64,000 nt of DNA from an uncultured virus (IMG/VR IMGVR_UViG_3300002071_000003) (IMGVR_UViG_3300002071_000003:1-64000); one strand, 5' to 3'; counted from the stretch's first letter, positions 21,462 to 62,155 are shown. The notes: generated by a model not told the origin, from the letters alone. Numbers and translations are program-made.

Positions 21462-24400
21462 TTAACTATCTATTTTAACTGGACGTGCCTCGAATGTTAG
21501 AGTGTACTTTAGAATTGTAGAACTCTCTGGTACCTGCTTTGAAACAGCCAAAGAGTTTGCAATGGCTAAATAGTACTTATCTCTATGCTGTATATATAGC
21601 GGAGCAAATCCCCGTGCTGACCGCATAATTGTAGCTGCTAATCTAACCTTATCCTTACATGCTTCATAGGTTGGTTCCCATACAAGCATTTCTATTGTTA
21701 TTACAGTATTTTTAAGCCCTGTATCTTCAGATAATGCACCATCAATATATGGTGCAGGATATGAGTTAAGACTTACTTCATTTGAGTAGGATTCTGACTG
21801 GGCATACCCCGGCAAGTCGTGACCATTGAATCGCACAAGATATGTATAATAGTCACTAGTTGGCCCTATACCGGGGGGAATAGCCTGTCCCACTACTATA
21901 TAACCCGCTGCTAGGCCAAATTTAGGGACATTGAAGGCTATTATGCGTGCTTGGGCCTGACTAAACTTATGGTACCCTACCCAAACCATAGCTTGTCCTG
22001 TGACTTTGTATTGCTTGGATATCCGCGTTCTGGCTTGTGCCCCTACCCAATGTCTCTCAAACAACACTGCCAAGGCTTGTGCAATCGGAGAGTATACTTG
22101 TTTAATCCAAACTCGTGAATTACCCTCCGAATAATAGGTTTGCACCATATCTGCTTGTGCCTGCGCTGTTTCTAGACCTGTATTTAATAGTGCTACCGCC
22201 CCGCCAATTTCTCTATAGGTTTGCCTAATAGCTGCCTGTACTTGGGAACTAGGCCAAGGATAAATATATACAGTTGCCTGTGCGTATCTCTGTATACCTA
22301 CCCCTCTAATAAGAGCTTTTGCTTGCGCCCATTTCCAGTTCTTGGTAATGTATGCTTGGGTACTAGCAAATTGGAAGTGGCCTATATAAACTTTGGTTTG
22401 ACCATAGCTTTTACCGTGTCTCCTATCCAAAATAGTTACTAGGGCCTGTCCAGCCCATTGTGGCTTAGTAATCCATACCTTTGCATAACCTGTCTTTACA
22501 TATGTTTGCAATACCCTAGCCTTAGCCTGCCCAAATTGAGAAACATCATAAGCTATTATCCGTGCTTGCGCATTAGCAATAACAGTAGGGGGTATAATCC
22601 AAGTATTTGCTTGGTTATATGTATTAAATGTTTGTAAAATATCAACAGTGGTAAGTCCTGTTACTGTAGGTGGGATTACCCATGTATTGGATTGACTGCT
22701 CGTTTGGTACGTAGTGATAATAGTTACTAGGGCCTGTCCAAAGGCGGTAAGGCCAAAAGCGGGCCACAAGAGGGTTCCAGCTTGTCCTACAGCAAAGTGT
22801 CCAAAGGATGCTTGTGCCTGAGCAAATGTTCCAGATTTAACTGTAGCAAATCCTAACTCAAACGTTAGAATAGATACCCCATTATTTGTACCAAGATTAT
22901 CTACCAGTAATCTCCAAAGACTTGTTGTTATAGAAGGTAGCTCCCCTGCTATAGCTTTTGAAGCATCAATCGGATCGAAGATTCCTACGTTAAACGATAT
23001 ACCCTGTATAAGCTCCTGCCAAGCACCATCCCAATACTGTAAACTTACAGTAGCATCATACCTAACTGGAACTATTCGGTAATAGTTAACAGTTCTATCT
23101 TGCCCAAAGTCTATTTGTAGCCATTCATCATCCTGAATCCAGACACCGTTCTCGAAATAGGCTTGAGGACCAAAGATTTCCCACACTGGTCCGGCGTCAT
23201 TTCCATCTATAACGTTTATCGGGGTTAACTGCCCCATCGAATCTATTGCTGTAGCACCCATAGTAGTCAGGGCATAATTTGTATCCATACTCATTAACGG
23301 ATATGTTTGCTTAATCCGAGTCTGTGCTTGTCCCGTTACAACAGGGGTTAGGTACCAGAATTGTGCCTGACCAAACCCACTGTACGTTTGTGGAGGGCGC
23401 GTTGTTCGGGCTTGGAAGTGTGTGAGAATTTGACCGGCAGACAGTTCGTGATCGAAGATCGCAAATTCATCCAATCCACCATTCCATGAGTATTCGTCAT
23501 AACCTAACCACACATCTTGCCCAAAGGTTCTGGCAGTACGGGACCCTCTCACTTGCGATAGAGCTTGCGAAACCCCATTAATATAAATCTTGTTTGCTAT
23601 TGCTTCGTCTTGACCTGAGTACCATACCATTGCAACATGGAGCCATTTATTATCAAGACCTGTTGAGGCAAGACCGTAAATATCTCCACCATTTGAATTA
23701 AATCCGTAGTTGCCCCCATAGAAATAGAGACCTCCCCAAGGGGAGCCACTACTACCAAGATAATATGCCGCAACATCGTCTGTTCCGGTCCAGTACATCC
23801 AGAATTCAACAGTAATGGCACTTCCAACGGTTGTAGGAATCCATCCATAGTCGCTTCCTATTTGTTGAGCTAGTATCTTGTGTGCGTTTAATTGCCCTAC
23901 ACCCCACCCACCACCATAAGGCCAGAAGATTGATGTTCCTTGATTTGATAGGCTACCAGTTACACCAAAAGTGGCACCGCTTTTATTCCAAACAGCATCC
24001 CCTCTACCTACTAAGGTATGAAGAATACCTGCCTCTTGTCCTACTGAAACACCCAAAGCAAATCTAACAAGATTTGTTGCATCCCCATTATAGGCTTCTA
24101 CTTCTGAGAATCCAGGATCACCATTTCCATCCGAATCGCTTATTAAACGCATCCATGTAACATTTGTAGCAGGGGCAGTGTAGGTTGAAACCTCCCCACT
24201 AGTAGAAGGGAATGTTACATTATAAGAAGTACCATTGCTATATAAAATTCTACCAGACCCAAACGTATAGTCGGGCCTATTAGTTACTTTTACTGTTAGT
24301 ATGCTTTGTGGAGCACCCCAAGTTACTTGCCACCACTCACCTATAGTGTAGCCTGCACTTGCCCAACCATTATCGGTATTACCGTCTGCCGCAAATTCTG

Positions 24401-27251
24401 GTAAATAACCTCCGTCATAAAAGTTATAAGCACTATAAGCTACTTCTCCACCATAATATGTTTCATCTAGCGGATAATAGAGTATAGGTCTATCAGTAAG
24501 AACAGCCTTTCTATACCCTAGAACATTGTATCCAATTTGCGCAATTGCTTGGCCCGGTCTAAATCCACCGATCTGTAATTGTGCCTGACCAGATACAGCA
24601 ATATCTGTTACCTTTATGTATACTTGGGCTTGGCTGCGAGCAATGGTGGAACTTATCTCTGCATTAACCTGTGAATATTGTGAAAGCCCTAGATAATAGG
24701 GAGTCCACGGAGGATTGTTACTGGTTAATATGTTCCAATATGTGTCTGCTGGTCGCATATATTGTACAATCCAGCCATTTATTGTCCAATCCCCATACCA
24801 ATTTGTAGTGATTTGGTACGTAGTTCCCTCAGTAAGGGAGATAGAGCCGGTTGCATATCCACCATCAACTTCTGCACTTGCAGTTAGAACAGTGGTGGCA
24901 TCTATATTTAGATACCCTGAATAGTCGGCAAACATTTGGAATTGCCATGTACCCGATACATCAGCAACGAAGGTTCCTGTTGCCCACCACTGGGCATTAT
25001 CAGGCATTGAGTATTCAGGAAAGTTAGGCCATCCGGGTGTATTTACAATGTAATAGGTAGTATCATCCTGATTTACATACAACCCCATATTGAATGTTGG
25101 GACATAGAAAGGATTAAAAGCAGCTTGTGCCTGTGCAGACTTAGAAGTATCTTTATATATTACTTTTACTCTTGCTTGTGCATAGTGATTAGTGGTAGCA
25201 AATATAGCAACAGCAGCCTGACTAATCTGTTGGAAAATATTCATTGCTCCCGGTGTCAGGTTATATATATACCAAGAAGCACCAGCAAATCCCCAACGCC
25301 AAGTAATTAAGGCCCCTGCTTGGGCATAAGCCTGTAGCTTACCTGCAATATAGTGGTCGGCTACTTGAGCAGAAGTTAATACCGTATTATAAGCGGCTAT
25401 ACTGTCATATATAGGGTAATAGTTTTGAGAAACGTTTGAACCCTGATAAGGTGAGTAGTCTAAATAGAAATAATTACCGGCAACAGAAGACCCATTCCAT
25501 TGATTTGTTTGTACACCATTTACATAGAAAGTAACTGTTCCATTATCGTAAGTAAGAGCAAGATAGTACCAAGAAGACCATCCGTTACCAGCATCTACTG
25601 TAACATTAGAGTTATAAACGGTACTTCCCCACATAGTAGTAACATAGTTACCCAACGAGTTAGGGGTGGTTCCGCCCTGTCCAACAACAACACTAGAGCC
25701 TATTGAGAATATTGGAGCTTTACCTGAAATGCCATAACCCGTATAGAATTGTACCCACCCTTCAAACGTCCATTGGGTACCTTGGAACCTAGAATAAGTT
25801 GGGGAATAAAGATATCCGTAGTAATAATAGAAACTATGAGCCTGTCTATATGGGGGATTTATACCACCATAAGGGGAACCGTAATTAAAGTAGTTATCAT
25901 AGTATTTTGTTAGAGTATAATTACCAATAATATCTTGTGGGCCACTAGATTTAGGTCCCTCCATTGGCCAAAAGCTTACAGCACCGTCTTGCTTTACCTT
26001 ATATGCATAGCTGTTATAAGGGCCAATATCAAGCCATGCTTGTGCATTAGCATATCCTGCGCCCTTTTTAATGAATGCCTGTGTTTGGGAAAAAGTATTA
26101 TTATCAAATACTAGAATATCTGTTTGTGCCTGTCCAACCCACTGTGATTGATTTACTACGGCTAATGCTTGGGAAAATACACTAGATACGACAAGTATAT
26201 TAGCGTTAACCTGAGCATTAGATTGATTATATAAGAACGCGCCAACACCCTTAACAATAATATTATCAAACTTTGAAGCCTCATTAACACTAGACTCATA
26301 GATATCAAGAAGGCCGGGGCTATTGCTGCCTAATTGATTTACAGGCCATGAGGTCTGAATTACTGTCCACGTAACAGGTTCAGTATCTCCTACTTTCCAA
26401 AAATGTATCTTAACGTGATTGGAATCTGTAGTACTTATTACAACGTGTGTTGTGTACCAAGCACTTCTAGTTGAAATAGGCCATGATCCATTACTATTGG
26501 GGCCTGATATATTGTAGGAGGTTTCAGTATTAGTTGCACGAAAATACCAGTTACGATCATACCAATATGTATAAGCACCATTATCACCGGATGCAGGAAT
26601 CCATATATCCATAAAGAACTCGCCATCATTATTACCTGTAGTAGCACCAGTATTATATAGGGAGTCATAAGTTTGCCCACTAGGTATAGGCATAACCAGC
26701 ACAGAGCCATTAACATATATAGGGGTAGTACTTGCATTCCACCTAGTATCCCAACCTGACCAGACCCACGGTTGCCCTGTATCGGCATTACCTATAGCAA
26801 ATGGGGGCGCAGTTGTAGTACGACTAAACGTATCCTGAAATACAGTAGTATACCGCTGGATTGATATCCAAGCAGTTGCTTGGGCATAAACTTGTTGGGA
26901 AATTAATATACTAGTTTGTGACTGGGCATATTGGGGCACGTCAAAGGAGATGATCTGTGCCTGCGCCTGCCCCTTTCCATATGGAGCAGTATAAATATAA
27001 ATAATTTGGGAATTAGTTTGGGCATAAGATTGGAAAGTACTACTTACAGCTATTTTAACCCGAGACTGGCTACTATTTCGATATGTAACTAATATCTGCC
27101 CTTGGGATTGAGCATAATAGGATTGATTAGATAGTACTTGTACAGCAGTTTGTGCGTATACACTACTAATTACGGACTCTAGCAATAAAACGCCAGAACC
27201 ATCTTCAAGTAGATACCCACCAGAACTGTCTTCAAGAAGATATTTAGACAT
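21462..27251 (-). CDS. giant QAQ-repeat virion protein with LamG, PA14 and discoidin inserts and a C-terminal Dit-like domain
   Basis: 14-15-aa (Y/F)AQxQxxI repeats; LamG motifs (TFEGWV, LALTYD..YVNG, DEFAIF); C-terminus paralogous to 28120-28848. Confidence 0.8.
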   Translation of the reverse strand: MSKYLLEDSSGGYLLEDGSGVLLLESVISSVYAQTAVQVLSNQSYYAQSQGQILVTYRNSSQSRVKIAVSSTFQSYAQTNSQIIYIYTAPYGKGQAQAQIISFDVPQYAQSQTSILISQQVYAQATAWISIQRYTTVFQDTFSRTTTAPPFAIGNADTGQPWVWSGWDTRWNASTTPIYVNGSVLVMPIPSGQTYDSLYNTGATTGNNDGEFFMDIWIPASGDNGAYTYWYDRNWYFRATNTETSYNISGPNSNGSWPISTRSAWYTTHVVISTTDSNHVKIHFWKVGDTEPVTWTVIQTSWPVNQLGSNSPGLLDIYESSVNEASKFDNIIVKGVGAFLYNQSNAQVNANILVVSSVFSQALAVVNQSQWVGQAQTDILVFDNNTFSQTQAFIKKGAGYANAQAWLDIGPYNSYAYKVKQDGAVSFWPMEGPKSSGPQDIIGNYTLTKYYDNYFNYGSPYGGINPPYRQAHSFYYYYGYLYSPTYSRFQGTQWTFEGWVQFYTGYGISGKAPIFSIGSSVVVGQGGTTPNSLGNYVTTMWGSTVYNSNVTVDAGNGWSSWYYLALTYDNGTVTFYVNGVQTNQWNGSSVAGNYFYLDYSPYQGSNVSQNYYPIYDSIAAYNTVLTSAQVADHYIAGKLQAYAQAGALITWRWGFAGASWYIYNLTPGAMNIFQQISQAAVAIFATTNHYAQARVKVIYKDTSKSAQAQAAFNPFYVPTFNMGLYVNQDDTTYYIVNTPGWPNFPEYSMPDNAQWWATGTFVADVSGTWQFQMFADYSGYLNIDATTVLTASAEVDGGYATGSISLTEGTTYQITTNWYGDWTINGWIVQYMRPADTYWNILTSNNPPWTPYYLGLSQYSQVNAEISSTIARSQAQVYIKVTDIAVSGQAQLQIGGFRPGQAIAQIGYNVLGYRKAVLTDRPILYYPLDETYYGGEVAYSAYNFYDGGYLPEFAADGNTDNGWASAGYTIGEWWQVTWGAPQSILTVKVTNRPDYTFGSGRILYSNGTSYNVTFPSTSGEVSTYTAPATNVTWMRLISDSDGNGDPGFSEVEAYNGDATNLVRFALGVSVGQEAGILHTLVGRGDAVWNKSGATFGVTGSLSNQGTSIFWPYGGGWGVGQLNAHKILAQQIGSDYGWIPTTVGSAITVEFWMYWTGTDDVAAYYLGSSGSPWGGLYFYGGNYGFNSNGGDIYGLASTGLDNKWLHVAMVWYSGQDEAIANKIYINGVSQALSQVRGSRTARTFGQDVWLGYDEYSWNGGLDEFAIFDHELSAGQILTHFQARTTRPPQTYSGFGQAQFWYLTPVVTGQAQTRIKQTYPLMSMDTNYALTTMGATAIDSMGQLTPINVIDGNDAGPVWEIFGPQAYFENGVWIQDDEWLQIDFGQDRTVNYYRIVPVRYDATVSLQYWDGAWQELIQGISFNVGIFDPIDASKAIAGELPSITTSLWRLLVDNLGTNNGVSILTFELGFATVKSGTFAQAQASFGHFAVGQAGTLLWPAFGLTAFGQALVTIITTYQTSSQSNTWVIPPTVTGLTTVDILQTFNTYNQANTWIIPPTVIANAQARIIAYDVSQFGQAKARVLQTYVKTGYAKVWITKPQWAGQALVTILDRRHGKSYGQTKVYIGHFQFASTQAYITKNWKWAQAKALIRGVGIQRYAQATVYIYPWPSSQVQAAIRQTYREIGGAVALLNTGLETAQAQADMVQTYYSEGNSRVWIKQVYSPIAQALAVLFERHWVGAQARTRISKQYKVTGQAMVWVGYHKFSQAQARIIAFNVPKFGLAAGYIVVGQAIPPGIGPTSDYYTYLVRFNGHDLPGYAQSESYSNEVSLNSYPAPYIDGALSEDTGLKNTVITIEMLVWEPTYEACKDKVRLAATIMRSARGFAPLYIQHRDKYYLAIANSLAVSKQVPESSTILKYTLTFEARPVKIDS

Positions 27252-27394: not shown

Positions 27395-28102
27395 CTACAC
27401 GAACCTGATCCAGTCGAAGGCAGCTTCGACCTTAGCGCCGTAGTAGTCACTCACGACGAAGCCGACACTGGCAAGGGTCATCTCCGGGTCGATTGTGGCG
27501 GCCCCCTCCGTCCAGAGGAAGCCGGTATAGGAGTATTGGCACACAACGTCAGTCGAGGACGTGACGATCATCCGCAGGTACAACGGCGGCCAACCCGCTG
27601 CAAAGGCGGCATTGTCTAATCGCGTTGTCGGGTCTGTCCATATCTGGCGACTCAATCCGCGGCCGGATTCCCAGTATTGGCCCCAAGTGAGCAGCTTGCC
27701 CGGCGACGCCTCCCCAACGAAGATGCCCGCGGACTGATAGTCGGCGCCCACCGTCGTGTCGCTGAGTTTGGCCGTCACCGTGTACGGCATCGTGGGCGCC
27801 GCCTTGTAGGTGCCGTCCAGTCGCCACTCCCCCGCCGTCCGCCCGATGTGGACGTGGCTCGGGAAGTCGGTGACGTTCGCCGTGTCGAGCGTGCCGAGCG
27901 TTGTCCAGCCCGAGAGCGTGTCGAACTCATTGTCATAGGCACTGGGCGATGACGGCCGGGTGTCCGGCGAGACGCCGCCAAAGAGCGTCTGAATCTGTGC
28001 AACTGTTAATTTCTTTGGTGTTCCACCCTCGTTGACAGGAATTTCCTGAGTACCAAGAGCAGAGGAAGCAGCAGTAAGAGCGCTAATTTTTGTATCAGCC
28101 AT
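27395..28102 (-). CDS. MADTKISAL-adaptor protein with a high-GC ConA/lectin-like C-terminal domain (putative receptor-binding module)
   Basis: Low-GC N-terminal ~37 aa followed by a GC-rich beta-sandwich (DNEFD...SAGIF...LYLRM...YS..G..W...FDWIRF). Confidence 0.7.
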   Translation of the reverse strand: MADTKISALTAASSALGTQEIPVNEGGTPKKLTVAQIQTLFGGVSPDTRPSSPSAYDNEFDTLSGWTTLGTLDTANVTDFPSHVHIGRTAGEWRLDGTYKAAPTMPYTVTAKLSDTTVGADYQSAGIFVGEASPGKLLTWGQYWESGRGLSRQIWTDPTTRLDNAAFAAGWPPLYLRMIVTSSTDVVCQYSYTGFLWTEGAATIDPEMTLASVGFVVSDYYGAKVEAAFDWIRFV

Positions 28103-28119: not shown

Positions 28120-28848
28120 TTATATGTACCAATGATCGTAGTAACTTATACTTGCTGATCCATCTACTGTAAAGGTTGTTCTTCCCGGCCCCACATATAA
28201 GCGGTAGTCCTTTGTAGTAACAAGCGCGTTCTTATTAACGCCCCCAATTGTAGCCGTGAAGGCTTCTGTATCCACAACCAATCCGGTAACGCCAGTTGTT
28301 ACAATACTGCCTGTAGACTGGCTATCCGCAGTCATACCGCTTATGCTATTCCCTGTTAGTGTTACGATAGTAGGTGTCCAGCCTCCACTATATATTGTGC
28401 GCCCTACTTCATCAGTGTCACTACTTATCACATGAAGTTCCTCACCAATTAACCAAGGGCGGCATTCAAAATCTACCTTATAAGTAAGCTGGCGCACAGA
28501 ACTTCCAGTAGCCTTATCCGTAGTAATAGATTTAACCATTGCAGAATAATGTTTATCCGCATATTGTACGTACAAATTTGCCCATCCGCCTCTATAACTT
28601 CGTAGATACGTAGCAGCTAACTCTACTTGTTGTTTACAGGTTAGGTAGTCTGTTTCCCACACCAGTAACGTCAAAGAAATAACTTTATTTGCTAACCCAG
28701 TCTCTTCTGAAGGGCTTCCGTCGATGTAAGCTCCATAATGTTGTACAACATTCATCATAGAGTCAAAGCTCTCTGATTGAACATAGCCGGGAAGTACGTA
28801 ATTGTTATAACGAGCAAGATATTGCTGCGCTGGACCTAAAGGACTCAT
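28120..28848 (-). CDS. distal tail protein (Dit)
   Basis: Immediately after the tape measure; FECRPW and LYVGPG..TF...YYDHW motifs. Confidence 0.75.
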   Translation of the reverse strand: MSPLGPAQQYLARYNNYVLPGYVQSESFDSMMNVVQHYGAYIDGSPSEETGLANKVISLTLLVWETDYLTCKQQVELAATYLRSYRGGWANLYVQYADKHYSAMVKSITTDKATGSSVRQLTYKVDFECRPWLIGEELHVISSDTDEVGRTIYSGGWTPTIVTLTGNSISGMTADSQSTGSIVTTGVTGLVVDTEAFTATIGGVNKNALVTTKDYRLYVGPGRTTFTVDGSASISYYDHWYI

Positions 28849-49423: not shown

Positions 49424-49424
49424 C

Positions 49425-51995: not shown

Positions 51996-52071
51996 TGGTG
52001 CGCCATGCCGGATTCGAACCGACACATTCAATTTGGAAGACTGACATGCTGCCGTTAGACATTAATGGCGC
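51996..52071 (-). tRNA. trnG: tRNA-Gly(UCC)
   Basis: Loop CTTCCAA; GCG acceptor; A73. Confidence 0.92.
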
Positions 52072-55015: not shown

Positions 55016-56176
55016 CTATGCGCTTACGTTGTTCACGACGGTGTTGGTCATGCCNGCCTTNTCGNCATAGCCACCCGCCGTGTTTCCGTAGTACATATTG
55101 CCGATGACCAAATTATCGTTGGTCTGCGTGCCGCTGTATGAGCCAAGGTAGATGCCATACTGCTGCGTGGGCGAGTCCTGTGTATCGTAACACTGGTTGT
55201 TGCTCAGGATGTTGCGGACGCTTGCGCCCGGAGCGGAGTCGATGTAAATGCCGCTAAACGCCCCGGCGCTAGACCTGGAGTTCTGCTTGACGATGTTCAT
55301 GGCGAGCACGTTGCCAACCATCAACTCCCCGAAATACATCCCGTGCTTGTCGCAATCTTCAACATGGTTAGCGATAAGGGTGCAACCCTTCAACCCCAAG
55401 CCCGTAATGCCGAATTCGGACGCATTGTAGATGTGGTTTTCGTGGATGCGGTGCCCGAAGCCCATGTACAATTCGATGCCATACTTCATAAACGCGCCGA
55501 TATCGTTGTTCTTGGCGGTCAGGGAGTTTGTGTTCCCGGTGCAGATGCCGCAATAAGAGAAACGGTTGTCTACAACCCTAAGTTCCTCGCCGTATTCGAA
55601 GTAGATACCCCGCTTGTTTGTCGTCCCGGTCGAGCCCACGATATCGTTGTCGTGGAACGACGACCGCCAGAGATAGGCGAGGTGAAACACGTCATGGTCG
55701 CCCGTGACGCCGCGCTGGTCGATCCGCAGATGATCGACTTCGATGCCGGTGTTGCCGTTCGTAAGGTCGGAGTTCTCAAACATGTTGAAATCCAGCCCGC
55801 CGCCCGCCGCGATATCCGCCCCGAAGTACCCGCTCGGGTCGCCGTAGGAACCCTGCTCGCTGGTATGCATCGGCCGACCGGGACCTGTCAGGCGGACGAA
55901 ATTGGGGATGTTCAACGTGGCCGTGGTGATATAACACCCGCGTGGGAGCCAGACCGTACCGCCCCGATGGTTGGCATCCACAGCCGCTCCGGCCGCCGTG
56001 ATCGCCGCCTGAATGGCCGTCGTCTGGTCAGTCGCGTCGCCGGGGGCTCCATAGTCGGCCACGTTGAAGTAGCCGAGGGAGTTGCCGACGTGGGCAGCAT
56101 TCCATTCAGAAGGTAAAACTTCGCTCGTATCTCCACCATCTGACTTAGCAGAAACCTTAGCATGTGTAATTGGCAT
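55016..56176 (-). CDS. adaptor-fused pectate-lyase-like right-handed beta-helix (tailspike/depolymerase-like), high-GC body
   Basis: FNVADYGA.GD..DQTTAIQAAI...GGTVWLPRG.Y pectate_lyase_3 start and N..I..N..GI repeats; low-GC N-terminal MPITHAKVS..PSEWNAAH. Confidence 0.85.
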   Translation of the reverse strand: MPITHAKVSAKSDGGDTSEVLPSEWNAAHVGNSLGYFNVADYGAPGDATDQTTAIQAAITAAGAAVDANHRGGTVWLPRGCYITTATLNIPNFVRLTGPGRPMHTSEQGSYGDPSGYFGADIAAGGGLDFNMFENSDLTNGNTGIEVDHLRIDQRGVTGDHDVFHLAYLWRSSFHDNDIVGSTGTTNKRGIYFEYGEELRVVDNRFSYCGICTGNTNSLTAKNNDIGAFMKYGIELYMGFGHRIHENHIYNASEFGITGLGLKGCTLIANHVEDCDKHGMYFGELMVGNVLAMNIVKQNSRSSAGAFSGIYIDSAPGASVRNILSNNQCYDTQDSPTQQYGIYLGSYSGTQTNDNLVIGNMYYGNTAGGYXXKXGMTNTVVNNVSA

Positions 56177-56189: not shown

Positions 56190-56486
56190 CTAATAAACTC
56201 TATCTATTACTTCAAAGCCATTTGTCTGAGCTATTTCACGCCCCATTCCGTCTATTCCCCATCCCTCATACTCATACCAGCCGATTGTATTGGGGTGATA
56301 TATATAGGATAAATATCCTGAGTTTGTAGTTAAGTCTGTACCGGATACTGTTACGATATTTCCTTGGGGACTCTTAACACTTAACTTATAATAGATAGGA
56401 ACCATAGGCTGCTCGTTTAAGTCAAAGAACTCCATACGGATTTCTGGTGCTCCACCAAGTACATATACGTTTGGATTTATTGCCAT
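56190..56486 (-). CDS. small Ig/BppU-like virion adaptor protein
   Basis: F.D....P....VKSP.G...G...Y.Y.P...G.Y.Y pattern. Confidence 0.6.
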   Translation of the reverse strand: MAINPNVYVLGGAPEIRMEFFDLNEQPMVPIYYKLSVKSPQGNIVTVSGTDLTTNSGYLSYIYHPNTIGWYEYEGWGIDGMGREIAQTNGFEVIDRVY

Positions 56487-56497
56487 TCTATCACCCC

Positions 56498-59400
56498 TTA
56501 GTAATCTCTATCACTGAGTACTAATAACAGAGTTCTCTCTGATAATCTAAGTATAATTTCCTGTGGTTCTGTTTCTACTATCTTTATTACTATATCATCT
56601 AATCTTTCCTGTGGAACTATTAGATCACTTAATACTAATCCTAATGCCACGTCACTTATTATTAGTGTCTTTAGTATGTATTCAAATATTATGTAAACTT
56701 GGGCCTGTCCATATCCAGCAGACTTGCTGAATACTGCCTGAGCCTGTGCATAGCCTTCATAAGTTGCCTGAACCCAAACAGCAGATTGGCCGTATACCCA
56801 ATCGTAGGTTTGAACCAATGTTTGTGTAGATGCTGCCTGATTAATACCTGACAGTATAACGCTGGCTTCGGCCTGTCCGTATATATTAATAGTTGTCTTA
56901 ACTAATCCTTGGGCGTTAGCTTGTGTCTGATTAATATACAGTCCAAGGATTTGAGTCTGTGCTTGTGCATAACCGCTAGAAACTTGCTTAATTGCTACGC
57001 CACTGTTAGCATATCCCATACCAACAAGGTAAATCTTAGCCTGAGCCTGAGCAACAGCAGGGAACGTTGATCTTATGTGAACGCTGACCTGTGCATAAAC
57101 CTGGCTTATTTGTTTGATTTGTGCTATTGCCTGTGAATATGTCTTATATGTAGTTTTTACTTGCGCCTGTGCTTGTGCAGATGCTTGATAATTCTGCTCT
57201 ATGCTGGTTCGTGCATTAGCACATACTGTGTATGACTGTTTAATATCAGCCAATACCTGTGCTGGCTGAACACTTGATCCGCCGATCCACGCAGATGCTT
57301 GTGTAAATACTAAACTCTTAGCCTTTATATCAGTTTGTGACTGCGTAAATATCTGGCTAATAGCCTTAATTTTAGTCTGCGCCTGTGCATAAGCTGTGTA
57401 GGTAGTTTCTATATCTACCTTTGCTTGTGCAAATACATTATAGGTATGCTCTATATCAGTCTGAGATTGAGCATAAACTGTCTGACCCCAATCTTTAATA
57501 TCGGCCTGTGATTGACCATATCCCTTAACAGCAATGCCCTTAATCTTTGCTTGGATACTTGCTACAACTTGCTTTGTTGTTGTAACTCTTACCCTTGCCT
57601 GAGCAGAAACGTTTTTGCCCCAATCTAGGATACCTGCTTGGCTTTGTGCATAAGTAGTTTGTCCCCAATCCTTAACATCGGCTTGTACCTGAGCATATGT
57701 TGTAATACCAAGAGTCTTTACTCTTGCTTGTGCTTGCGCTAGTCCTAATGCAGAACCACCAATCCACACTGTAGCCTGTGCGTAATGTTGTATAATACTC
57801 TTTATGTATGCTTGTACCTGAGCGTATGCTTTAATTCCAGATACGATATACGCCTGCGTTTGGGCACTAACAACTATATTACTTACTTCAATATAGCCAG
57901 TAGCCTGTCCATAAGATTGATAACTATTTTGGACATTTACCATAGATTGCGCAAATGTATAATATGTTTGACTTATATCAGTTTGTGACTGAGCATATGC
58001 CTGATAAGTTTGTGTAATATCAGCATTAGATTGTGCATAAGACTGATACTGAGTCAAAATAGCTGCCTGTGCTTGACCGCTGCAAACTATATCATTTATG
58101 ACCACTAACGCAGTAGTTTGCCCTGTTTGAGCCGCTGTAACCTTTATATCTGCTTCTGCCTGTCCGTATACCTGTAGACCTGACAGTTGAATGTAGGCAT
58201 TTACTTGCGCCCCAACTAACGAGGATTGCTTGATACTTGTCTGTGCTTGGGACACGGAATAATAACTCTTTTTGATATCTGCCATTGCTTGCGCAACTGT
58301 TTGATATTTTTGATTTACCCATGCTTGTGCTTGAGCTACTACTTGGAAGGTTCTCTTAACATCAGTTTGTGCCTGCGCCCATTGAGGATAATTGAAGGCA
58401 TAAATCTTTACTTGCGCCTGAGCCGATACAGTGGTTCCACTAAAGCGGATATTTGTTATAGCCTGAGCAAATTGTGAAACATTAAATCCAACGATACGAG
58501 AGTTTGTCTGTGCCTGTACTAAGTATGTAGTCTTAACGTCCGCTTGTGCCTGACCAAGTGCTACCGTATTCGTAAACTTGATCCAAGTAGCTGCCTGTGC
58601 ATATACGCGACTTGTAACCTTGATATCGGTTTGGGATAGTCCAGACTGCATATAGTAGGACTTAATATCCGTTTGTGCGTTTGCAGATACCCTACTCTTT
58701 TGTAGGATAGTAGCTAACGCTTGACCGAAGACCTGTTCTGTTACTTTAATGTCAGTTTGAGCAATAGCAAATCCTTGCCCGATTTGCTTTATATCGGCCT
58801 GTGGTTGTGCATATTCCTGTCTACCGGATAAGATAATTTGTGCTTGTGCCTGAGAATTGGCAAATGAAACTGCCTTGATATCTGTTTGGCCCTGTGCAAA
58901 GGCAGTAGATTTAGCCTTAACGTCTACTTGGGTTTGAGCATAAACTGTTTGGCCCCAATTTTTAATGTCGGCCTGAGATTGTGCAAATCCGCCAACACCA
59001 GTACCCTTAATATTTGTAGCTGCCTGAGCATAAACTTGAACACCAAAAGCGTTTATATCAACTTGTGCTTGGGCATATCCAAGAGATGTGGCCTTTATAT
59101 TAACCTGTGTTTGTGCAGATACTAGTGAAGTCTGCTTAATATCAGTCTGAGTTTGAGCAAAGCCTTGACTAAATTGCTTGATATTGGCCTGTACTTGGGC
59201 ATAAGATAATCTACCAGAAAGAATGATTTGGGCATTAGCCTGACCATACCCTATGCCAACTTGCTTAATATCTGCCTGTGTTTGACCGTAAGTTGTTTGC
59301 CCCCAGTCTAGGATATTAGCATTAGATTGGGCATAAATAGTTGTAGTAGTTGCAGCACCCACTATCTGTACTTGTGCTTGGGCGCAAGAAACTAGCCCAA

Positions 59401-62155
59401 CAGTTTTAATCCAAGCAGTAGATTGGGCATAAGACTGTCTACTAGAAAGGATTATCTGTGATTGTACCTGAGCAAATCCTGTAGAAGTAACCTCAATATC
59501 TGTCTGAGTCTGAGCGTATACTGTATTATTGATAACCTTTATCCAAGAATTACCTTGCGCCCAAACCTGACTTGCTACCTTTACATCGGCTTGTGCATTT
59601 ACACTTGCTGTATAAGTTTGCGTGATATCTGTCTGAGTGTCTGCATATCCTTGGTAGGTCTGCTTTATATCTGTTTGCGCCTGAGCGTAAGCGCGTGAAG
59701 CAGCCTTGATATCCACTTGAGACTGTGCAAATACTTGACTGAACTGCTTTACGTCTACTTGGGCCTGTGCAAAGGAAGGTGTATAGCTCTTAATATCAGC
59801 ACAAGTTTGCCCCAACGTTGAGTAAGTAGCCTTAATCTTTGACTGTGTTTGGCCCCAAACTGTAATACTAGTTACCCTGATCCAAGAATTAGGCTGTGCA
59901 TACCCAGTAGAAGTTTGTTTAATATCAGTTTGTACCTGAGCAGATACCAAGGATACTTGCTTGATATCAGACTGTGCTTGAGCGTATGTAACAGCATACT
60001 GCTTTACATCAGTTTGCGTTTGGACAAACGCTTTCTGTACTGTTTTGATATCAGTCTGTGTCTGAGCTTCTGCTTCAATTAGTGTTATCTTTATCCATGC
60101 ATTAACTTGGGCAAATTGCTGTTTAGTAGATAACGCTGCTACAACCTGTGTCTGTGCCTGAGCATTTGCCCGATAGACTGTCTTAATATCAGTTTGGGCT
60201 TGTCCATAGACCTTAGATATAGCCTTAACATCTACATCTACTTGAGTTTGTGCAAAAGCGCCTTCGCAGTAGTCTGTCTGGAAGGCACCATTTTGGAAGG
60301 CATCACTTTGAAATGCACCAGAAATACAAAGTGGATATGTCTGTTTTATATCTGCCTGAGACTGCCCAAAGGTCTGAATGGATGTTCCTCTAATATTAAC
60401 CATAGACTGCGCATAAAACTGTACAGCAAAGGCATTGATCCTAGTTAATGTCTGTCCATAAGTTGTCTGCCCCGTATCCTTGATCCAAGCATTGGCTTGT
60501 GCAAATACTTGAATGCCCCAATCTTTTATGTCCGCTTGTGTCTGTGCATAAACTGTTTGTCCCCAGTCCTTAATATCTGACTGAGTTTGTCCATAAGTAT
60601 AACGTGTAGTCGCAGTAGCAATGGTAATCTGTGCCTGTACCTGAGCAAATGTTGGACTTTGTATTCCACCTATGGCCCCTGCCGTGTAGTGGGCGGCTAC
60701 TGCGGTCGATGATAGGGCCGTGTCGTAGATCGCAACCTCGTCTACGACCCCGTTCATCGGGTTTGCGCCAGCTACCTGAGCCGCGATTGTGACGGCCGTC
60801 TTGGACGGGAAGGTCCTCGCGACGCTGGTGCTATAGGTGCATTCCGCCCCGTCGAAATACATGTGCCGGGCGGCGCCATTCTTGGTGACAACGATGTGAT
60901 GGAAGAACGTCGTATCCATCCAGAAGCCCGCCACGGTATCGAGGCAGGACCCGGTGTATCCGAGGTCGAACACCAGACTGTTGTTGTACGAATAGATTTG
61001 CGCGCCGTGGTCATAGGACAGATAGACGTGGGTTCCACTGCTCGTGGAGTCACGCTTGACCCACATCTCCAGCGTGAACGTGTCCACGATCGCTGGCAGG
61101 GTCGCGACGGTTGCATACTGGGTTGATGCAGCCGCGAACCGGACCGCCGTATCCGAATCGCCAGTTAGGGCTCCGGCCACTCCGAGGGTCGGTGAGTTGA
61201 CATAGGTTCCGGTGGCCGTGGCGATGGCATCGGCCATGCTGGTCCCCGACAACTCACCTTGGCGCCAGTAGGCGATTGGTGAGTCTGCGAGGACCGTGGC
61301 AGAATAAGACGTACCGCCTCTTGGATATGTTTGTTTTATATCTGCTTGGGATTGGGCATAAGTCGTAATATTCCAATCTTTTATGTCTGATTGTGCTTGT
61401 GCTTCTACTTGTCTAGTAGTGGCCACTGCTACTACCGTTGCTTGTGCTTGTGCCCTTACTTCCATATTTTCTAACAGGGTTATCCAAGCAATAGCCCAGG
61501 TAGCAGATGTTCCTAAGGTAACGTTATAGGTTTGGGCGCCAGGTGCAGTAAGTATTTTTGCTTGTGAAGATATACTTTGCCCCGAGGTTGTTGTTCCATT
61601 TGTAGCAGTTTGTGCTGTAGTCCAAGAGCCGTTTGCAGTATCAGAATCATTAGTAAAGGTTTGAGCAGTGCCATACTGATCACCAACTGCACCAATTACT
61701 ATCTGAGCCTTATCAATAGAACTTGTTGTAATAGTTGGTGCAGTTGAGGAACCTGTTGCTGTAGCCCCTGTTTCATAAGCAACATTATTTCCTGCCGCGC
61801 TATCAACTTCTGTTAAGGCCCAAGCTGTAGACCCGACCGTCTTACCTCCGTAAGCTACAGTAATAGTATTTCCTGTAGTTAATGCCCCAACAGACATATT
61901 GGAAGTGAAAATACGCAGTACATTACCAGCACTAGCAGCACCCGGATCATTTAATGCATTCTGTCTAGGTGTCCAAGTATTACCTACAGAGTCGCTTATT
62001 GCTGAATAGGGATCAGCACCACTCGATCCTGCGTTGTCATAACTAATTTCTAGAACAGCCCATGACCCTGCTGTAAAGTTTGATGCCGGTGTTACAACTG
62101 CGGAAGTACCGCTACCTATCCCACCGCTACCCCTATTCGCTGTTGTTAATGCCAT
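56498..62155 (-). CDS. giant QAQ-repeat protein with a high-GC LamG insert, an AFQ motif and an L.LSD C-terminal tail
   Basis: Roughly 90 (eye estimate) 14-15-aa (Y/F)AQxQ(A/T)xI repeats; LamG motifs AYWR.GE, FTLEMWV, HHIVVT, VDEVAIY. Confidence 0.85.
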   Translation of the reverse strand: MALTTANRGSGGIGSGTSAVVTPASNFTAGSWAVLEISYDNAGSSGADPYSAISDSVGNTWTPRQNALNDPGAASAGNVLRIFTSNMSVGALTTGNTITVAYGGKTVGSTAWALTEVDSAAGNNVAYETGATATGSSTAPTITTSSIDKAQIVIGAVGDQYGTAQTFTNDSDTANGSWTTAQTATNGTTTSGQSISSQAKILTAPGAQTYNVTLGTSATWAIAWITLLENMEVRAQAQATVVAVATTRQVEAQAQSDIKDWNITTYAQSQADIKQTYPRGGTSYSATVLADSPIAYWRQGELSGTSMADAIATATGTYVNSPTLGVAGALTGDSDTAVRFAAASTQYATVATLPAIVDTFTLEMWVKRDSTSSGTHVYLSYDHGAQIYSYNNSLVFDLGYTGSCLDTVAGFWMDTTFFHHIVVTKNGAARHMYFDGAECTYSTSVARTFPSKTAVTIAAQVAGANPMNGVVDEVAIYDTALSSTAVAAHYTAGAIGGIQSPTFAQVQAQITIATATTRYTYGQTQSDIKDWGQTVYAQTQADIKDWGIQVFAQANAWIKDTGQTTYGQTLTRINAFAVQFYAQSMVNIRGTSIQTFGQSQADIKQTYPLCISGAFQSDAFQNGAFQTDYCEGAFAQTQVDVDVKAISKVYGQAQTDIKTVYRANAQAQTQVVAALSTKQQFAQVNAWIKITLIEAEAQTQTDIKTVQKAFVQTQTDVKQYAVTYAQAQSDIKQVSLVSAQVQTDIKQTSTGYAQPNSWIRVTSITVWGQTQSKIKATYSTLGQTCADIKSYTPSFAQAQVDVKQFSQVFAQSQVDIKAASRAYAQAQTDIKQTYQGYADTQTDITQTYTASVNAQADVKVASQVWAQGNSWIKVINNTVYAQTQTDIEVTSTGFAQVQSQIILSSRQSYAQSTAWIKTVGLVSCAQAQVQIVGAATTTTIYAQSNANILDWGQTTYGQTQADIKQVGIGYGQANAQIILSGRLSYAQVQANIKQFSQGFAQTQTDIKQTSLVSAQTQVNIKATSLGYAQAQVDINAFGVQVYAQAATNIKGTGVGGFAQSQADIKNWGQTVYAQTQVDVKAKSTAFAQGQTDIKAVSFANSQAQAQIILSGRQEYAQPQADIKQIGQGFAIAQTDIKVTEQVFGQALATILQKSRVSANAQTDIKSYYMQSGLSQTDIKVTSRVYAQAATWIKFTNTVALGQAQADVKTTYLVQAQTNSRIVGFNVSQFAQAITNIRFSGTTVSAQAQVKIYAFNYPQWAQAQTDVKRTFQVVAQAQAWVNQKYQTVAQAMADIKKSYYSVSQAQTSIKQSSLVGAQVNAYIQLSGLQVYGQAEADIKVTAAQTGQTTALVVINDIVCSGQAQAAILTQYQSYAQSNADITQTYQAYAQSQTDISQTYYTFAQSMVNVQNSYQSYGQATGYIEVSNIVVSAQTQAYIVSGIKAYAQVQAYIKSIIQHYAQATVWIGGSALGLAQAQARVKTLGITTYAQVQADVKDWGQTTYAQSQAGILDWGKNVSAQARVRVTTTKQVVASIQAKIKGIAVKGYGQSQADIKDWGQTVYAQSQTDIEHTYNVFAQAKVDIETTYTAYAQAQTKIKAISQIFTQSQTDIKAKSLVFTQASAWIGGSSVQPAQVLADIKQSYTVCANARTSIEQNYQASAQAQAQVKTTYKTYSQAIAQIKQISQVYAQVSVHIRSTFPAVAQAQAKIYLVGMGYANSGVAIKQVSSGYAQAQTQILGLYINQTQANAQGLVKTTINIYGQAEASVILSGINQAASTQTLVQTYDWVYGQSAVWVQATYEGYAQAQAVFSKSAGYGQAQVYIIFEYILKTLIISDVALGLVLSDLIVPQERLDDIVIKIVETEPQEIILRLSERTLLLVLSDRDY

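Follow-up and report, generated by a model that had tools for sequence, protein, structure and literature searches.

Structural region of the phage

The source of the window (the whole stretch of 64,000 nucleotides analysed here, from the IMG/VR record IMGVR_UViG_3300002071_000003) is an uncultured siphovirus-type phage of about 117 kb, and the window, with a mean GC content of 0.425, is its structural region. This phage (G001) was compared with clade relatives, including G002, G056, G059 and G061. A DNA search against cultured phages returned no match to it, a protein search against cultured phages gave only a LamG-level match for the giant protein P0002, in Burkholderia phage FLC9, and the best match of TerL in a protein search, at 23%, was to one uncultured record. 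Two Dit peptide patterns run against GTDB species genomes produced 46 pattern matches, none of which was confirmed as a prophage relative. The genes considered here are the following:

18710..21454, minus strand: Tal-like protein of 914 aa, encoded after P0001; identified from its position and from a weak match to Prophage_tail (E 0.0017, below cut-off)
21462..27251, minus strand: P0001, a class B giant of 1929 aa, with an LLED head, six QAQ blocks, five inserted globular domains and a C-terminal Dit ring
27395..28102, minus strand: tag1 gene, 235 aa, with an N-terminal KISAL module and a high-GC C-domain
28120..28848, minus strand: canonical Dit of 242 aa, directly after the TMP gene; shares 39–51% identity with the Dit parts of 25 giants of class B
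28863..33818, minus strand: tape measure protein (TMP) of 1651 aa, from domain/PHROG search
55016..56176, minus strand: tag2 gene, 386 aa, with a THAKVS..PSEWNAAH module and a high-GC right-handed beta-helix (pectate-lyase-like)
56190..56486, minus strand: conserved 98-aa gene after the LSD-tailed giant, present in 5/5 genomes examined with 55–59% identity
56498..62155, minus strand: P0002, a class A giant of 1885 aa, with an N-terminal head, a LamG insert, an AFQ loop, about 85 QAQ repeats and an LxLSD tail
62294..62767, minus strand: conserved 157-aa gene upstream of class A giants, 45–47% identical in G061 and G056

The genes of the tail block run in the order TMP, Dit, slot gene (tag1), P0001 and Tal-like gene. 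G002, G056 and G059 keep the order TMP, Dit, variable slot, giant, Tal, and the place equivalent to that of the Tal-like gene is occupied in G002 by a conserved gene of 913 aa. The gene of P0002 is found not in the tail block but among transferase genes. Both small tag genes are lineage-specific insertions that are absent from the nearest relatives.

A repeat shared by two giant proteins

P0001 and P0002 have in common an AQAQAxIKxTY (QAQ) repeat of 14–15 aa. With no score threshold, an HMM built from the P0002 repeats (consensus YAQAQADIKQTSQT) matches P0002 88 times and P0001 32 times; at ≥3 bits the numbers are 73 and 13, respectively, and at this threshold there were no matches in the 46 other ORFs of the window (13,529 aa), none when P0001 was shuffled 20 times and no more than one in 20 shuffles of P0002. 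The ORFs and the HMM, set against the shuffled controls, agree with the first-pass annotation, which had placed two giant genes sharing a Gln/Ala repeat at these coordinates. The only families matched by the repeat were coiled-coil ones, below threshold, which is read as a composition effect; PF24161, listed by a source on some class A relatives, had no match in the Pfam search.

In two AF2 models of moderate confidence (mean pLDDT 68–73), each repeat is predicted to form one strand of about 10 residues followed by a turn. The best structural matches of the modelled shaft are the self-associating autotransporter adhesins TibA (4q1q_B) and Ag43 (7kob_A) and SufD-type beta-helices, long single-chain beta-solenoids and adhesin stalks: the predicted model aligns with TibA at VIA Z 16.9 (rmsd 3.6, 208 residues aligned) and with Ag43 at VIA Z 16.5, and the modelled P0001 repeats align with the beta-helix 5awg_F of SufB-SufC-SufD at Z 15.7 (rmsd 3.5, 218 aligned). 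A Foldseek search with the P0002 shaft model gave no significant match (best E 0.35). TibA and Ag43 have no sequence similarity to the giants, are bacterial, and are attached through a beta-barrel and not via a Dit ring; the repeat length of 14–15 aa also sets the QAQ shaft apart from them. The QAQ repeat models as a single-chain beta-solenoid shaft, with lectin-type domains inserted between the repeat blocks. The suggestion that the phage builds long stalks is supported by the AF2 models and the domain search, according to which the giants would be fibre-like shafts with binding domains between repeat blocks.

The giant family is rare: a word-indexed search yielded 123 matches, and 167 were found at E≤1e-3 among 1.84 billion representatives. 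It has been seen only on virus-sized metagenomic contigs, and none of its members bears an informative name, most being labelled “hypothetical protein” and one carrying the JGI label “CwlO-like”. A Dit domain is present in 58 of 122 family members, and a Dit C-part of 92–143 residues continues in 50 of these 58. P0001 and P0002 are paralogues of this one family, P0002 being the ring-less one. The heads vary, with 46 of the 58 Dit-bearing members having heads other than AFQ or LLED; “LGxxQLGDxxLG” heads (21/58 class B proteins) were examined as the possible partner of a slot-gene tag in a third pair, and no pattern emerged in 12 clade loci.

P0001, a giant with a Dit ring at its C-terminus

The following features can be distinguished in P0001:

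27174..27242, minus strand: LLED peptide repeat, residues 4–26, YLLEDSSGGYLLEDGSGVLLLES
26217..26861, minus strand: first inserted (“DTFSR”) domain, residues 131–345, with no Pfam family, conserved in class B relatives (consensus DTFTR...)
25359..25820, minus strand: LamG (Laminin_G_3), residues 478–631, E 8e-7
24786..25034, minus strand: PA14-like domain, residues 740–822, E 9e-4, below the Pfam cut-off (19.5 bits vs 24)
24090..24425, minus strand: F5/8 type C / DUF7402 (discoidin-like) domain, residues 943–1054, E ~1e-8 to 1e-9
23427..23825, minus strand: LamG, residues 1143–1275, E 1.4e-14
23004..23252, minus strand: second F5/8C-like domain, residues 1334–1416, E 5.5e-4, below the Pfam cut-off
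21465..21839, minus strand: Dit/tube-fold ring domain, residues ~1805–1929, AF2 pLDDT ~90

The LamG and discoidin domains and the Dit end that had been proposed for P0001 were recovered by domain search or by fold; the proposed PA14 domain stays below the cut-off in P0001 itself and reaches E 1.6e-9 in its orthologue P0120. The model of the ring domain shows the split-barrel fold that Dit proteins have in common with tail tube proteins and Hcp: it aligns with the SPP1 Dit (2x8k_C) at Z 11.2 (rmsd 3.3, 111 aligned), with the Dit proteins of TP901-1, 80alpha and p2 at Z 8.5–10.2 and with tube and Hcp chains at Z 7–8; in Foldseek, the probability of the matches is 1.0, with E from 2e-4 to 5e-3. 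The N-part of the canonical Dit encoded at 28120–28848 is homologous to this domain. Curated Dit models (Pfam Sipho_tail, PHROG Dit) matched neither P0001 nor the ORF at 28120–28848 at E≤0.01 to 1, a profile of six clade Dits found nothing among PDB sequences at E≤1, and a solved-structure sequence search with the Tal-like protein gave no match. The Dit assignment rests on modelled fold and on position. P0001 ends in a Dit ring fold and its gene sits between the TMP and Dit genes on one side and the Tal gene on the other, and it is therefore probably a tail-tip protein with a giant lectin-bearing arm.

The closest known counterpart is the “evolved Dit” of lactic-acid-bacteria siphophages, a single Dit described as carrying one or two carbohydrate-binding modules (CBMs) in loops of its C-terminal galectin domain (PMC7291167). 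P0001 resembles this protein, according to the same description, in combining a ring with carbohydrate-binding modules and in being encoded after the TMP and before the Tal; the evolved Dit acts there as an auxiliary adhesin. It differs in having its ring at the C-terminus of 1929 aa, with five lectin-type domains set in a repeat arm, about 1800 aa long, on its N-terminal side, and in having no peripheral Dit domain, a separate ordinary Dit being kept next door. P0001 stops a few residues past the ring domain and all of its lectin-type domains are N-terminal to the ring. By analogy, P0001 probably works like an evolved Dit, although it is not built like one, there being no CBM in the loops of a galectin-type C-domain. 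It would form part of the tail tip, next to the ordinary Dit, with the N-terminal arm of about 1800 residues projecting outward, and this arm may serve as a multivalent carbohydrate adhesin, an extreme form of the evolved Dit.

P0002, the ring-less paralogue

P0002 has three features outside its repeats:

60695..61123, minus strand: LamG insert, residues 345–487, E 2.7e-16, in a stretch with a GC content of 0.58–0.63
60236..60325, minus strand: AFQ peptide loop, residues 611–640, with two flanking Cys, modelled as disordered (AF2)
56501..56674, minus strand: LxLSD repeat tail, residues 1828–1885

The peptide GAFQSDAFQNGAFQ is located at about residue 613. The LamG domain and the L.LSD tail next to a small gene, both noted in the first-pass annotation, were seen again, by domain search and in the sequence, respectively. 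For the 98-aa protein, which had been proposed to be Ig-like, and for the P0002 head, the ESM Atlas returned only unnamed viral clusters, and its leads are weak (MG2 on 15% of the members of one cluster, BppU_N on 27% of those of another). P0002 may be a second virion fibre, held via its conserved LxLSD tail and the conserved 98-aa protein of the adjoining gene.

Small genes with variable C-terminal domains

The N-terminal modules of the two small genes are as follows:

27977..28102, minus strand: tag1 module, residues 1–42, MADTKISALTAA...NEGGTPKKLTVAQI
56081..56176, minus strand: tag2 module, residues 1–32

In each gene, a short native-like tag is followed by a payload of high GC, and the jumps in GC are those that had been claimed: 0.47 for the tag and 0.635 for the remainder in the tag1 gene, and 0.47 and 0.58, respectively, in the tag2 gene, with the breakpoints falling exactly at the tag/payload junction and the gene end. 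The GC of the P0002 LamG cassette and of both small-gene payloads is foreign, as had also been proposed. The C-domain of the tag1 gene (27395–28102), which had been proposed to be lectin-like, has no Pfam match; that of tag2 has two above the cut-off, to Beta_helix (E 2.3e-17, 64 bits vs 27) and to Pect-lyase_RHGA_epim (E 9e-16, 58 bits vs 25.9).

Tag1 was found on 45 proteins, which over about 40 aa are 60–88% identical and of which 43–44 have unrelated C-termini (the exceptions being P0154 and perhaps P0134, which aligns to residue 102), and it is carried by at least 198 viral stretches; tandem arrays of two to three tag1 genes occur. Tag2 was found on 17 other viral contigs. Where tag loci are annotated, they belong to structural modules, following genes for TMP, Dit, portal or head proteins, and show matches to tail fibre, tailspike or Gp10_C families, Gp10_C being found on one tag1 protein elsewhere. 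A solved-structure sequence search with the tag1 profile gave no match, and no homologue of the Dit, Tal or TMP of the window was found near the tags in other phages. Among 57 DNA versions of tag1, amino-acid identity averages 0.52; where residues are identical, third-position identity is 0.39, and GC3 values run from 0.08 to 0.89. For LLED, the corresponding identities are 0.72 and 0.36. Codon-level comparison indicates that tag1 and LLED are conserved by selection on the protein.

Tags are paired with peptide repeats

The co-occurrence of tags and motifs, which the first-pass annotation had put forward for checking across viral databases, proved positive and pair-specific, KISAL going with LLED and PSxWNAAH with AFQ. 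Among loci selected on tag1, LLED was found in 27/79 and AFQ in 0/79; among those selected on tag2, AFQ was found in 6/17 by HMM (10/17 by regex) and LLED in 0/17. Selection on LLED gave tag1 in 40/42 loci, upstream on the same strand in 38 of the 42, and tag2 in 0/42; the two loci lacking tag1 have less than 1.1 kb of upstream DNA each, and 10 of the 42 are on contigs already in the tag1 set or belong to the phage under study itself. Selection on AFQ gave tag2 (PSxWNAAH) in 10/20 loci and tag1 in 0/20. No cross pair was present in 158 loci. Fisher p-values for the pairing are overstated, because the loci are phylogenetically non-independent and several are near-duplicates (L106/L107, L111/L112, L136/L137, L142/L143, L152/L153).

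In unrelated phages, tag1 genes are likewise followed by a gene that begins with the LLED motif, the usual layout being tag, variable domain, stop and a following gene with the peptide at its head, with the order reversed at L035, L084, L155 and L163. Among whole records of the clade, tag1 with an LLED head was found in G001 only, and tag2 with AFQ in G001 and G059 only; in G059, an AFQ-headed QAQ giant comes immediately after a tag2-like slot gene, and in G001 the tag2 gene is not beside an AFQ-headed gene, an internal AFQ loop lying 4 kb upstream of it. LLED follows only about one third of tag1 genes and tag2 is found at half of the AFQ loci, so the tags probably also work without these peptides, or with variants missed by the models. 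An early reading in which the tags had no connection with the peptides of the giants was dropped in view of the co-occurrence of tag and peptide.

The repeat itself, which had been thought to take part in the coupling of the tags, does not travel with them. None of 50 tag1-bearing viral records (from 50 of the 79 loci; 6/50 at least 90% complete) and none of 17 tag2-bearing records (7 at least 90% complete) holds a QAQ repeat, the query used having matched 12/13 clade records.

Known systems and competing explanations

Separately encoded receptor-binding proteins (RBPs) with conserved docking peptides have already been published for the Klebsiella phages KP32, K11 and KP34 (PMC6872550, PMC13352976). 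As described in those articles, the branched RBPs resemble the tag proteins in being encoded separately, in keeping a short, conserved peptide at the N-terminus, in having a binding or enzymatic domain that can be exchanged, and in being swapped horizontally. As far as the same descriptions go, the systems differ in that the coupled partner here is a peptide repeat of about 25 residues, the sequences are unrelated, and there are two orthogonal, genetically coupled pairs. No Gp10-type family, such as the T4gp10-like branching domain that takes up the docking peptide in a primary RBP, was found in P0001 or P0002 (Pfam). The only match of tag1 in a cultured phage is gp53, a “putative fiber protein” of Roseobacter phage CRP-4 (MK613346.1, Zobellviridae), at 60.5% over 43 aa (E 2e-3). 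The adjoining gp54 starts with a short peptide repeat, RISESGDSRVSELGDSRITEE, which is only LLED-like; unlike G001, CRP-4 is a podovirus of 40.8 kb without QAQ giants, and its peptide-headed gene is upstream, not downstream. The likeness to a cellulosome scaffoldin is conceptual only, consisting of a long scaffold with short docking elements, and the coupling here excludes the repeat scaffold; no Pfam match to cohesin or dockerin was obtained in the 16 proteins scanned.

The first-pass annotation had treated the QAQ stalks as a dedicated scaffoldin-like display system, in which repeat, peptides and tagged effectors form one co-evolving unit. All of the parts do occur together in the phage under study, the cassettes and payloads are of foreign GC, the tag-peptide pairing is real, and G059 has its tag2-like gene before an AFQ-headed QAQ giant; such a unit is nevertheless at odds with the lack of QAQ repeats in the 50 tag1-bearing and 17 tag2-bearing records (0/50 and 0/17), with the distribution of the tags in 12 clade relatives (tag1 in none, tag2 in only one, weakly), with the heads other than AFQ or LLED on 46/58 Dit-bearing family members, and with the lack of a cohesin or dockerin family. 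As a unit, it is largely refuted and we regard it as improbable. It is even harder to see the giants as secreted or cell-surface proteins of infection or lysogeny, active in exclusion or biofilm adhesion, and not as virion parts, despite their structural likeness to bacterial autotransporter adhesins and the position of P0002 outside the tail block among transferase genes: the Dit ring domain of P0001 and its place between Dit and Tal, the restriction of the family to virus-sized metagenomic contigs and the scan of species genomes, which confirmed no prophage relative, make this explanation barely credible.

Two further explanations concern the pairing. The tag and the peptide might never touch, being independent modules for the same virion socket, such as a small upstream-encoded protein of about 140 aa. 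Directly upstream of the tag genes there is very often a gene for 120–180 aa, three upstream PHROGs are common to tag1 and tag2 loci (phrog_644 at 7 loci, phrog_5417 at 4, phrog_240 at 2), and tag1 stands without LLED in 52/79 loci. A shared socket does not, however, predict strict pair specificity (0 cross pairs in 158 loci), and the same upstream PHROGs accompany both tags; moreover, no Dit, Tal or TMP homologue of the type in the window lies near the tags elsewhere, and the upstream gene in G001 is the 242-aa Dit, not one of the recurring PHROGs, so that we hold this explanation to be unlikely. The tag and peptide might alternatively be conserved recombination flanks for swapping the C-domain, with no role as protein, as could be imagined from the layout of tag, variable domain, stop and peptide at the start of the next gene, from the GC breaks exactly at the tag/payload junction and gene end, and from the tandem arrays of two to three tag1 genes. 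The conservation is nevertheless at the amino-acid level (third-position identity 0.39 for tag1 and 0.36 for LLED, GC3 0.08–0.89), there is little DNA homology between distant carriers, the order is reversed in L035, L084, L155 and L163, and AFQ is internal in G001, 4 kb from the tag2 gene; a role solely in recombination seems very improbable.

The explanation that we favour, and consider rather probable, is that P0001 and P0002 are paralogous solenoid fibres, the former at the tail tip and the latter a second fibre, with exchangeable heads coupled via tag-peptide pairs and the shaft outside the coupling. The two small high-GC genes would encode exchangeable receptor-binding or depolymerase heads, with N-terminal modules of 30–40 residues, each of which is genetically coupled, across many unrelated phages, to a single short peptide repeat on another structural protein. 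The most likely mechanism would be an assembly joint between tag and peptide, made by binding directly or by folding together; through it the small head would be suspended from the fibre that bears the peptide, in P0001 at its distal N-terminal tip and in P0002 at its AFQ loop. More tentatively, tailed phages may in general use at least two orthogonal plug-and-socket codes to hang small heads non-covalently on larger fibres, with both sockets grafted, in this phage, onto solenoid arms of a new kind, one of them fused to a Dit ring, which would make a programmable tail tip with several lectins; we put this forward as a possibility that is still open to considerable doubt. Candidate code 1 would combine a tag of about 40 residues, MADTKISALTAA...NEAGTxKKLTVAQ, with a (Y)LLE(D/S)G x3 peptide, and in candidate code 2 an AFQxD x3 peptide would be matched by the tag HAKVSxKxDGxD...PSDWNAAH, some 30 residues long. 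Such codes are not in print as far as searches show; string searches of the literature for the tag and peptide motifs found nothing relevant, which is weak evidence for their being unpublished, as motif strings are rarely printed.

Implications for phage adhesion

Should the tag-peptide pairs prove to be true assembly joints, hundreds of uncultured phages that differ widely in base composition would already be using them as connectors that are short, portable and orthogonal to one another. The pairs would then provide ready-made adaptors for phage engineers swapping receptor-binding heads, and would allow annotators to recognise receptor-binding genes that today have no family. CRP-4, a cultured phage with a tag1-like fibre gene, could be used for tests. 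The QAQ family would, on its predicted structure, represent a new type of phage-fibre shaft, a single-chain beta-solenoid with defined exit points for lectin inserts, and a Dit ring able to carry an N-terminal arm of about 1800 residues would widen the known range of siphophage adhesion devices.

Gene layout of the phage

The window takes in bases 1-64000 of an IMG/VR viral contig of 75.9 kb, 63% complete by CheckV; a fuller contig of 117,070 bp (G001, 98% complete) represents the same phage, being 100% identical over the parts compared. Every long ORF of the window is carried by the minus strand, and family scans identified a siphovirus-type structural block. No DNA-level relatives were found for the window among cultured phages, and searches with the giant protein P0002 and with TerL retrieved no related cultured phage.

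Main features of the window (terminase, portal, TMP, Tal-like, replication and transferase genes from family scans)
Below 14 kb, minus strand, replication genes
18710-21454, minus strand, Tal-like gene
21462-27251, minus strand, giant P0001 (1929 aa)
27395-28102, minus strand, gene headed by the KISAL module (tag1)
28120-28848, minus strand, Dit gene
28863-33818, minus strand, tape measure protein (TMP)
43897-45597, minus strand, portal
45616-47190, minus strand, terminase large subunit
55016-56176, minus strand, β-helix gene headed by the THAKVS..PSEWNAAH module (tag2)
56498-62155, minus strand, giant P0002 (1885 aa)
Across the window, minus strand, several glycosyl- and methyltransferase genes

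A Peptidase_C39_2-like ORF lies at 14179-14985 and an HNH endonuclease at 52055-52408, roughly 5 kb upstream of the genes for terminase. Downstream of the Tal-like gene, after a 240-aa ORF and at a distance of some 0.9 kb, comes a 366-aa ORF (16664-17764) with a C-terminal CarboxypepD_reg-like domain. It has a 368-aa counterpart at the same place in the relative G002 and is probably another adhesin of the tail tip. The 3' end of the β-helix gene contains three N bases at 55055-55065. G001 ends within this gene and its first 54 bases repeat the end of the same gene, which places the assembly break, or a point of circular permutation, at this site.

The QAQ repeat and its protein family

The first-pass annotation had described two giant genes sharing a 14-15-aa Gln/Ala repeat (the QAQ repeat), and both ORFs were confirmed. 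An HMM of the P0002 repeats (consensus YAQAQADIKQTSQT) recognized 88 units in P0002 and 32 in P0001, or 73 and 13, respectively, at ≥3 bits; at this threshold there were no units in 46 other ORFs of the window (13,529 aa), none in shuffles of P0001 and at most one in shuffles of P0002 (n=20 each). The P0001 repeats form six blocks with globular domains in between. The repeat region of P0002 led to 123 proteins out of 7,998 scored candidates with lengths of 1036-3299 aa. Among 1.84 billion cluster representatives, filter-only HMMER scanning gave 167 matches at E≤1e-3, of which 125 reached ≤1e-10 and 58 reached ≤1e-30. No source provided an informative name for this family, and the repeat falls outside all Pfam and PHROG families. 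The longest contigs encoding such proteins are 100-128 kb, and several carry two or three of these genes.

A Dit-like domain is present in 58 of the 122 proteins P0001-P0122 (class B, including P0001) and absent from the other 64 (ring-less class A, including P0002). Four class B members, P0001 among them, stop 0-4 residues past the end of the domain, 50 run on for 92-143 residues, ending like ORF 28120-28848 (...YVGPGxTxFxxTGAxxxxIxYxxRWYL), and four are longer still. By regex, 32 class A proteins end in LxLSD repeats closing ...NY and 14 in ...YIPQIARPIADISNDGWVRVVI; several of the remaining 18 resemble one ending type or the other by eye.

In the AlphaFold2 model of P0001, each repeat forms one strand of about 10 residues and a short turn, and the repeat part aligns with the SufB-SufC-SufD β-helix (5awg_F; Z 15.7, rmsd 3.5, 218 aligned). 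Residues 596-900 of P0002 were modelled with a mean pLDDT of 68 (<50 in the AFQ stretch); Foldseek found no significant match to this model, and all-against-representatives alignment placed TibA (Z 16.9, rmsd 3.6, 208 aligned) and Ag43 (Z 16.5) at the top, with trimeric autotransporter heads, curli CsgA and phage tailspike β-helices among the further ranked matches. From these models, the QAQ-repeat shaft is read as a probable β-solenoid, monomeric or oligomeric, with one or two repeats to a coil.

Inserted domains and base composition

Binding-type domains had been proposed for both giants. Pfam identified LamG in both, and F5/8C together with DUF7402 in P0001. Two more stretches of P0001, one PA14-like and the other a second F5/8C-like one, stay under the Pfam cut-offs. 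Each giant also carries, as previously noted, a short repeated peptide: LLED at residues 4-26 of P0001 and AFQ near residue 613 of P0002. The short sequence KQTYP is common where the shaft gives way to an inserted element, preceding LamG (KQTYPRGG, ~277) and AFQ (KQTYPLCISG, ~605) in P0002 and the second F5/8C in P0001 (KQTYPLMSM, ~1310), and the related protein P0074 starts with ...IKQTYPLCSG followed by an LG-type peptide; KQTYP may mark a preferred insertion point.

The small genes next to the giants had been described as native-GC tags fused to foreign high-GC domains, and GC does jump directly past each tag, from 0.47 to 0.635 in the tag1 gene and from 0.47 to 0.58 in the tag2 gene (window mean 0.425). 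The LamG insert of P0002 (60698-61297), with a GC of 0.58-0.63 within a gene of ~0.41, is an in-frame cassette of foreign composition, like the payloads of both small genes. P0001 has native GC along its whole length (0.36-0.48).

A Dit domain and its probable place at the tail tip

Residues 1560-1929 of P0001 (33 aligned sequences) were modelled by AlphaFold2 with a mean pLDDT of 73, rising to ~90 over the last 125 residues. The C-terminal domain matches Dit/tube proteins in Foldseek (probability 1.0), aligns equally well with SPP1 Dit (Z 11.2, rmsd 3.3, 111 aligned) and a phage Milano baseplate chain (Z 11.2), then with the Dit of TP901-1, 80alpha and p2 (Z 10.2, 10.1 and 8.5), and at about Z 7 with lambda tail tip, tube proteins and Hcp; the earlier assignment of a Dit domain to this end is thus upheld. 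Classical Dit rings are described as hexamers (PMC7291167). ORF 28120-28848 directly follows the TMP gene and shares 39-51% identity with the C-terminal parts of 25 class B giants. It is therefore the ordinary Dit, and the class B giants are Dits hugely extended at the N-terminus. In complete or near-complete relatives the tail-tip order runs from TMP and Dit (241-256 aa) through a variable slot gene, which is optional, to the class B giant and Tal. The slot is empty in G002, holds genes of 355 aa in G056 and 574 aa in G059, and is occupied by the tag1 gene in the window phage. P0001 would work like an evolved Dit, although it lacks the CBM-in-galectin-loop architecture that defines these proteins.

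Genetic pairing of tags and peptides

Tag1 (~40 aa) was found on 45 small proteins at 60-88% identity; only P0154 resembles the window tag1 protein over its full length, and P0134 aligns up to residue 102. At least 598 stretches in IMG/VR matched tag1 patterns, at least 198 of which were confirmed. Tag2 occurs in P0169, where the C-domain is a different one, and on 17 further viral contigs. A motif scan detected LLED-type repeats in 15/79 tag1 loci and 0/17 tag2 loci, and AFQ repeats in 10/17 tag2 loci and 0/79 tag1 loci. Most of these peptides head the next gene downstream of the tag gene, at its extreme N-terminus (for example MADRYLLESGAPDGYLLEDGSGVLLLE, vs MSKYLLEDSSGGYLLEDGSGVLLLES in P0001; MAFQADAFQADAFQ is a further example). 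In the reverse test, loci were chosen by peptide alone (LLED n=42, AFQ n=20). In 38 of the 42 LLED loci, tag1 lay no more than 3 kb upstream and on the same strand, and in two it lay just downstream; at the two loci lacking it, the DNA reaches only 296 and 1,095 nt upstream. Ten of the 42 belong to the window phage or to contigs that the tag1 set already contained, and tag1 was found in 30 of the 32 others. Tag2 was found at half of the AFQ loci, always upstream on the same strand and within 3.4 kb in nine cases; none of the 20 had tag1.

Elements detected by HMM at loci chosen in different ways (loci are not independent, some are near-duplicates, and Fisher values overstate significance)
Chosen by tag1, n=79: tag1 79, tag2 0, LLED 27, AFQ 0
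Chosen by tag2, n=17: tag1 0, tag2 17, LLED 0, AFQ 6
Chosen by LLED, n=42: tag1 40, tag2 0, LLED 42, AFQ 0
Chosen by AFQ, n=20: tag1 0, tag2 10, LLED 0, AFQ 20
Clade relatives, n=17: tag1 0, tag2 1, LLED 0, AFQ 1

The co-occurrence check proposed in the first-pass annotation therefore came out positive, with tag1 in 40/42 LLED loci, tag2 in 10/20 AFQ loci and no cross pairs, demonstrating a pair-specific genetic coupling of tag and peptide. Two thirds of tag1 loci have no recognisable LLED head, and half of the AFQ loci have no tag2 in reach. The two matches among clade relatives come from one locus (L097). In whole clade records, only the window phage has tag1 and the LLED head, and the AFQ motif and tag2 are confined to this phage and G059, in which a tag2-like slot gene directly precedes a giant starting MVFQSNAFQSNAFQ. 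Across 57 distinct DNA versions of tag1 (GC3 0.08-0.89), mean amino-acid identity is 0.52 and third-position identity at identical residues 0.39; the corresponding values for LLED are 0.72 and 0.36. Both elements are conserved at the protein level.

The tags are real modules that are not tied to the QAQ repeat. The repeat was found in 0/50 tag1 records (6 of them ≥90% complete), the test covering 50 of 79 non-self loci and leaving out 29, mostly on short contigs, and in 0/17 tag2 records (7 ≥90% complete); the same query matched 12/13 clade records. Conversely, tag1 was absent from all 12 clade relatives, and a tag2-like motif was weakly detected in one (G059, E 0.0026). The proposal that the QAQ scaffold forms part of the tag system was thus not borne out. 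No homologues of the window structural proteins were found within 6 kb of tags elsewhere. Where neighbours could be named by PHROG, tag genes come after tape measure, Dit, portal or head genes, with domains of the tail fibre, tailspike or T4 Gp10_C type present in some of them. A 34-kb contig (G003, locus L010) encodes the sole full-length homologue of the window tag1 protein (39% identity). It lies between two ORFs, of 1993 aa and 1904 aa, the latter with an LLED-type peptide at its start and no QAQ repeats; here a different giant uses the same pair. In other phages (L018, L019, L021), two or three tag1 genes (~205-240 aa) in tandem precede an LLED-headed gene, which looks like a set of alternative heads with one common connector. 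The gene immediately upstream of tag genes is often 120-180 aa long and, at tag1 and tag2 loci alike, belongs to phrog_644 (L134, L140, L156, L159, L162, L165, L177) or phrog_5417 (L139, L160, L021, L118), both of unknown function; it is a candidate third component.

The class A locus and sugar-modifying genes

Class A giants lie in a recurrent gene order: a glycosyl/methyltransferase fusion, a ~160-aa protein, one to three giants, a ~98-aa protein and, farther on, a methyltransferase. The 98-aa gene (55-59% identity) follows the LSD-tailed giant in 5/5 genomes. In four relatives nothing corresponds to the β-helix tag2 gene at this position, and homologues of neither tag gene were found in G002; both small genes are therefore lineage-specific insertions.

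Many genes for sugar modification are found within and near the structural block (39061-39714, 48563-49471, 49425-50150, 14989-16191, 62652-63998, 53998-54549). They include GT2 genes, one of which lies between those for the head and those for the tail, as well as a polysaccharide pyruvyl transferase and a GT4; the others are a GT/methyltransferase fusion, immediately upstream of the locus of class A giants, and another methyltransferase. This fusion and the methyltransferase are conserved beside class A giants in relatives, and the top structural match is to TibA, which is glycosylated by TibC; these points raise the idea that the phage might glycosylate its own fibres.

Proposed arrangement and known systems

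P0001 would join the tail tip via its ring domain, beside the ordinary Dit, with its arm pointing outward; the N-terminus and its LLED peptide would therefore be distal, and the tag1 protein could hang on this tip. The β-helix protein, a likely glycan depolymerase, may be hung on the AFQ loop of P0002. The 98-aa protein would anchor P0002 in turn, together with the LSD tail of P0002 itself.

In its proposed mode of action the tag system resembles the branched receptor-binding proteins described for Klebsiella phages, with their conserved docking peptide (PMC6872550, PMC13352976). The receiving element differs, being putatively a short peptide repeat here and a T4gp10-like domain in the cited accounts of the Klebsiella branched systems. 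The only cultured-phage match to tag1 is gp53 of Roseobacter phage CRP-4, annotated 'putative fiber protein'; its neighbour, gp54, starts with a similar short repeat. A literature search for the motif strings of tags and peptides retrieved nothing relevant, and the pairs may be unpublished. The first-pass annotation thus holds as an observation and in part as an interpretation: the QAQ scaffold is a separate novelty and no required part of the pairing, and the tag-motif pairing itself is real and more general than first proposed.
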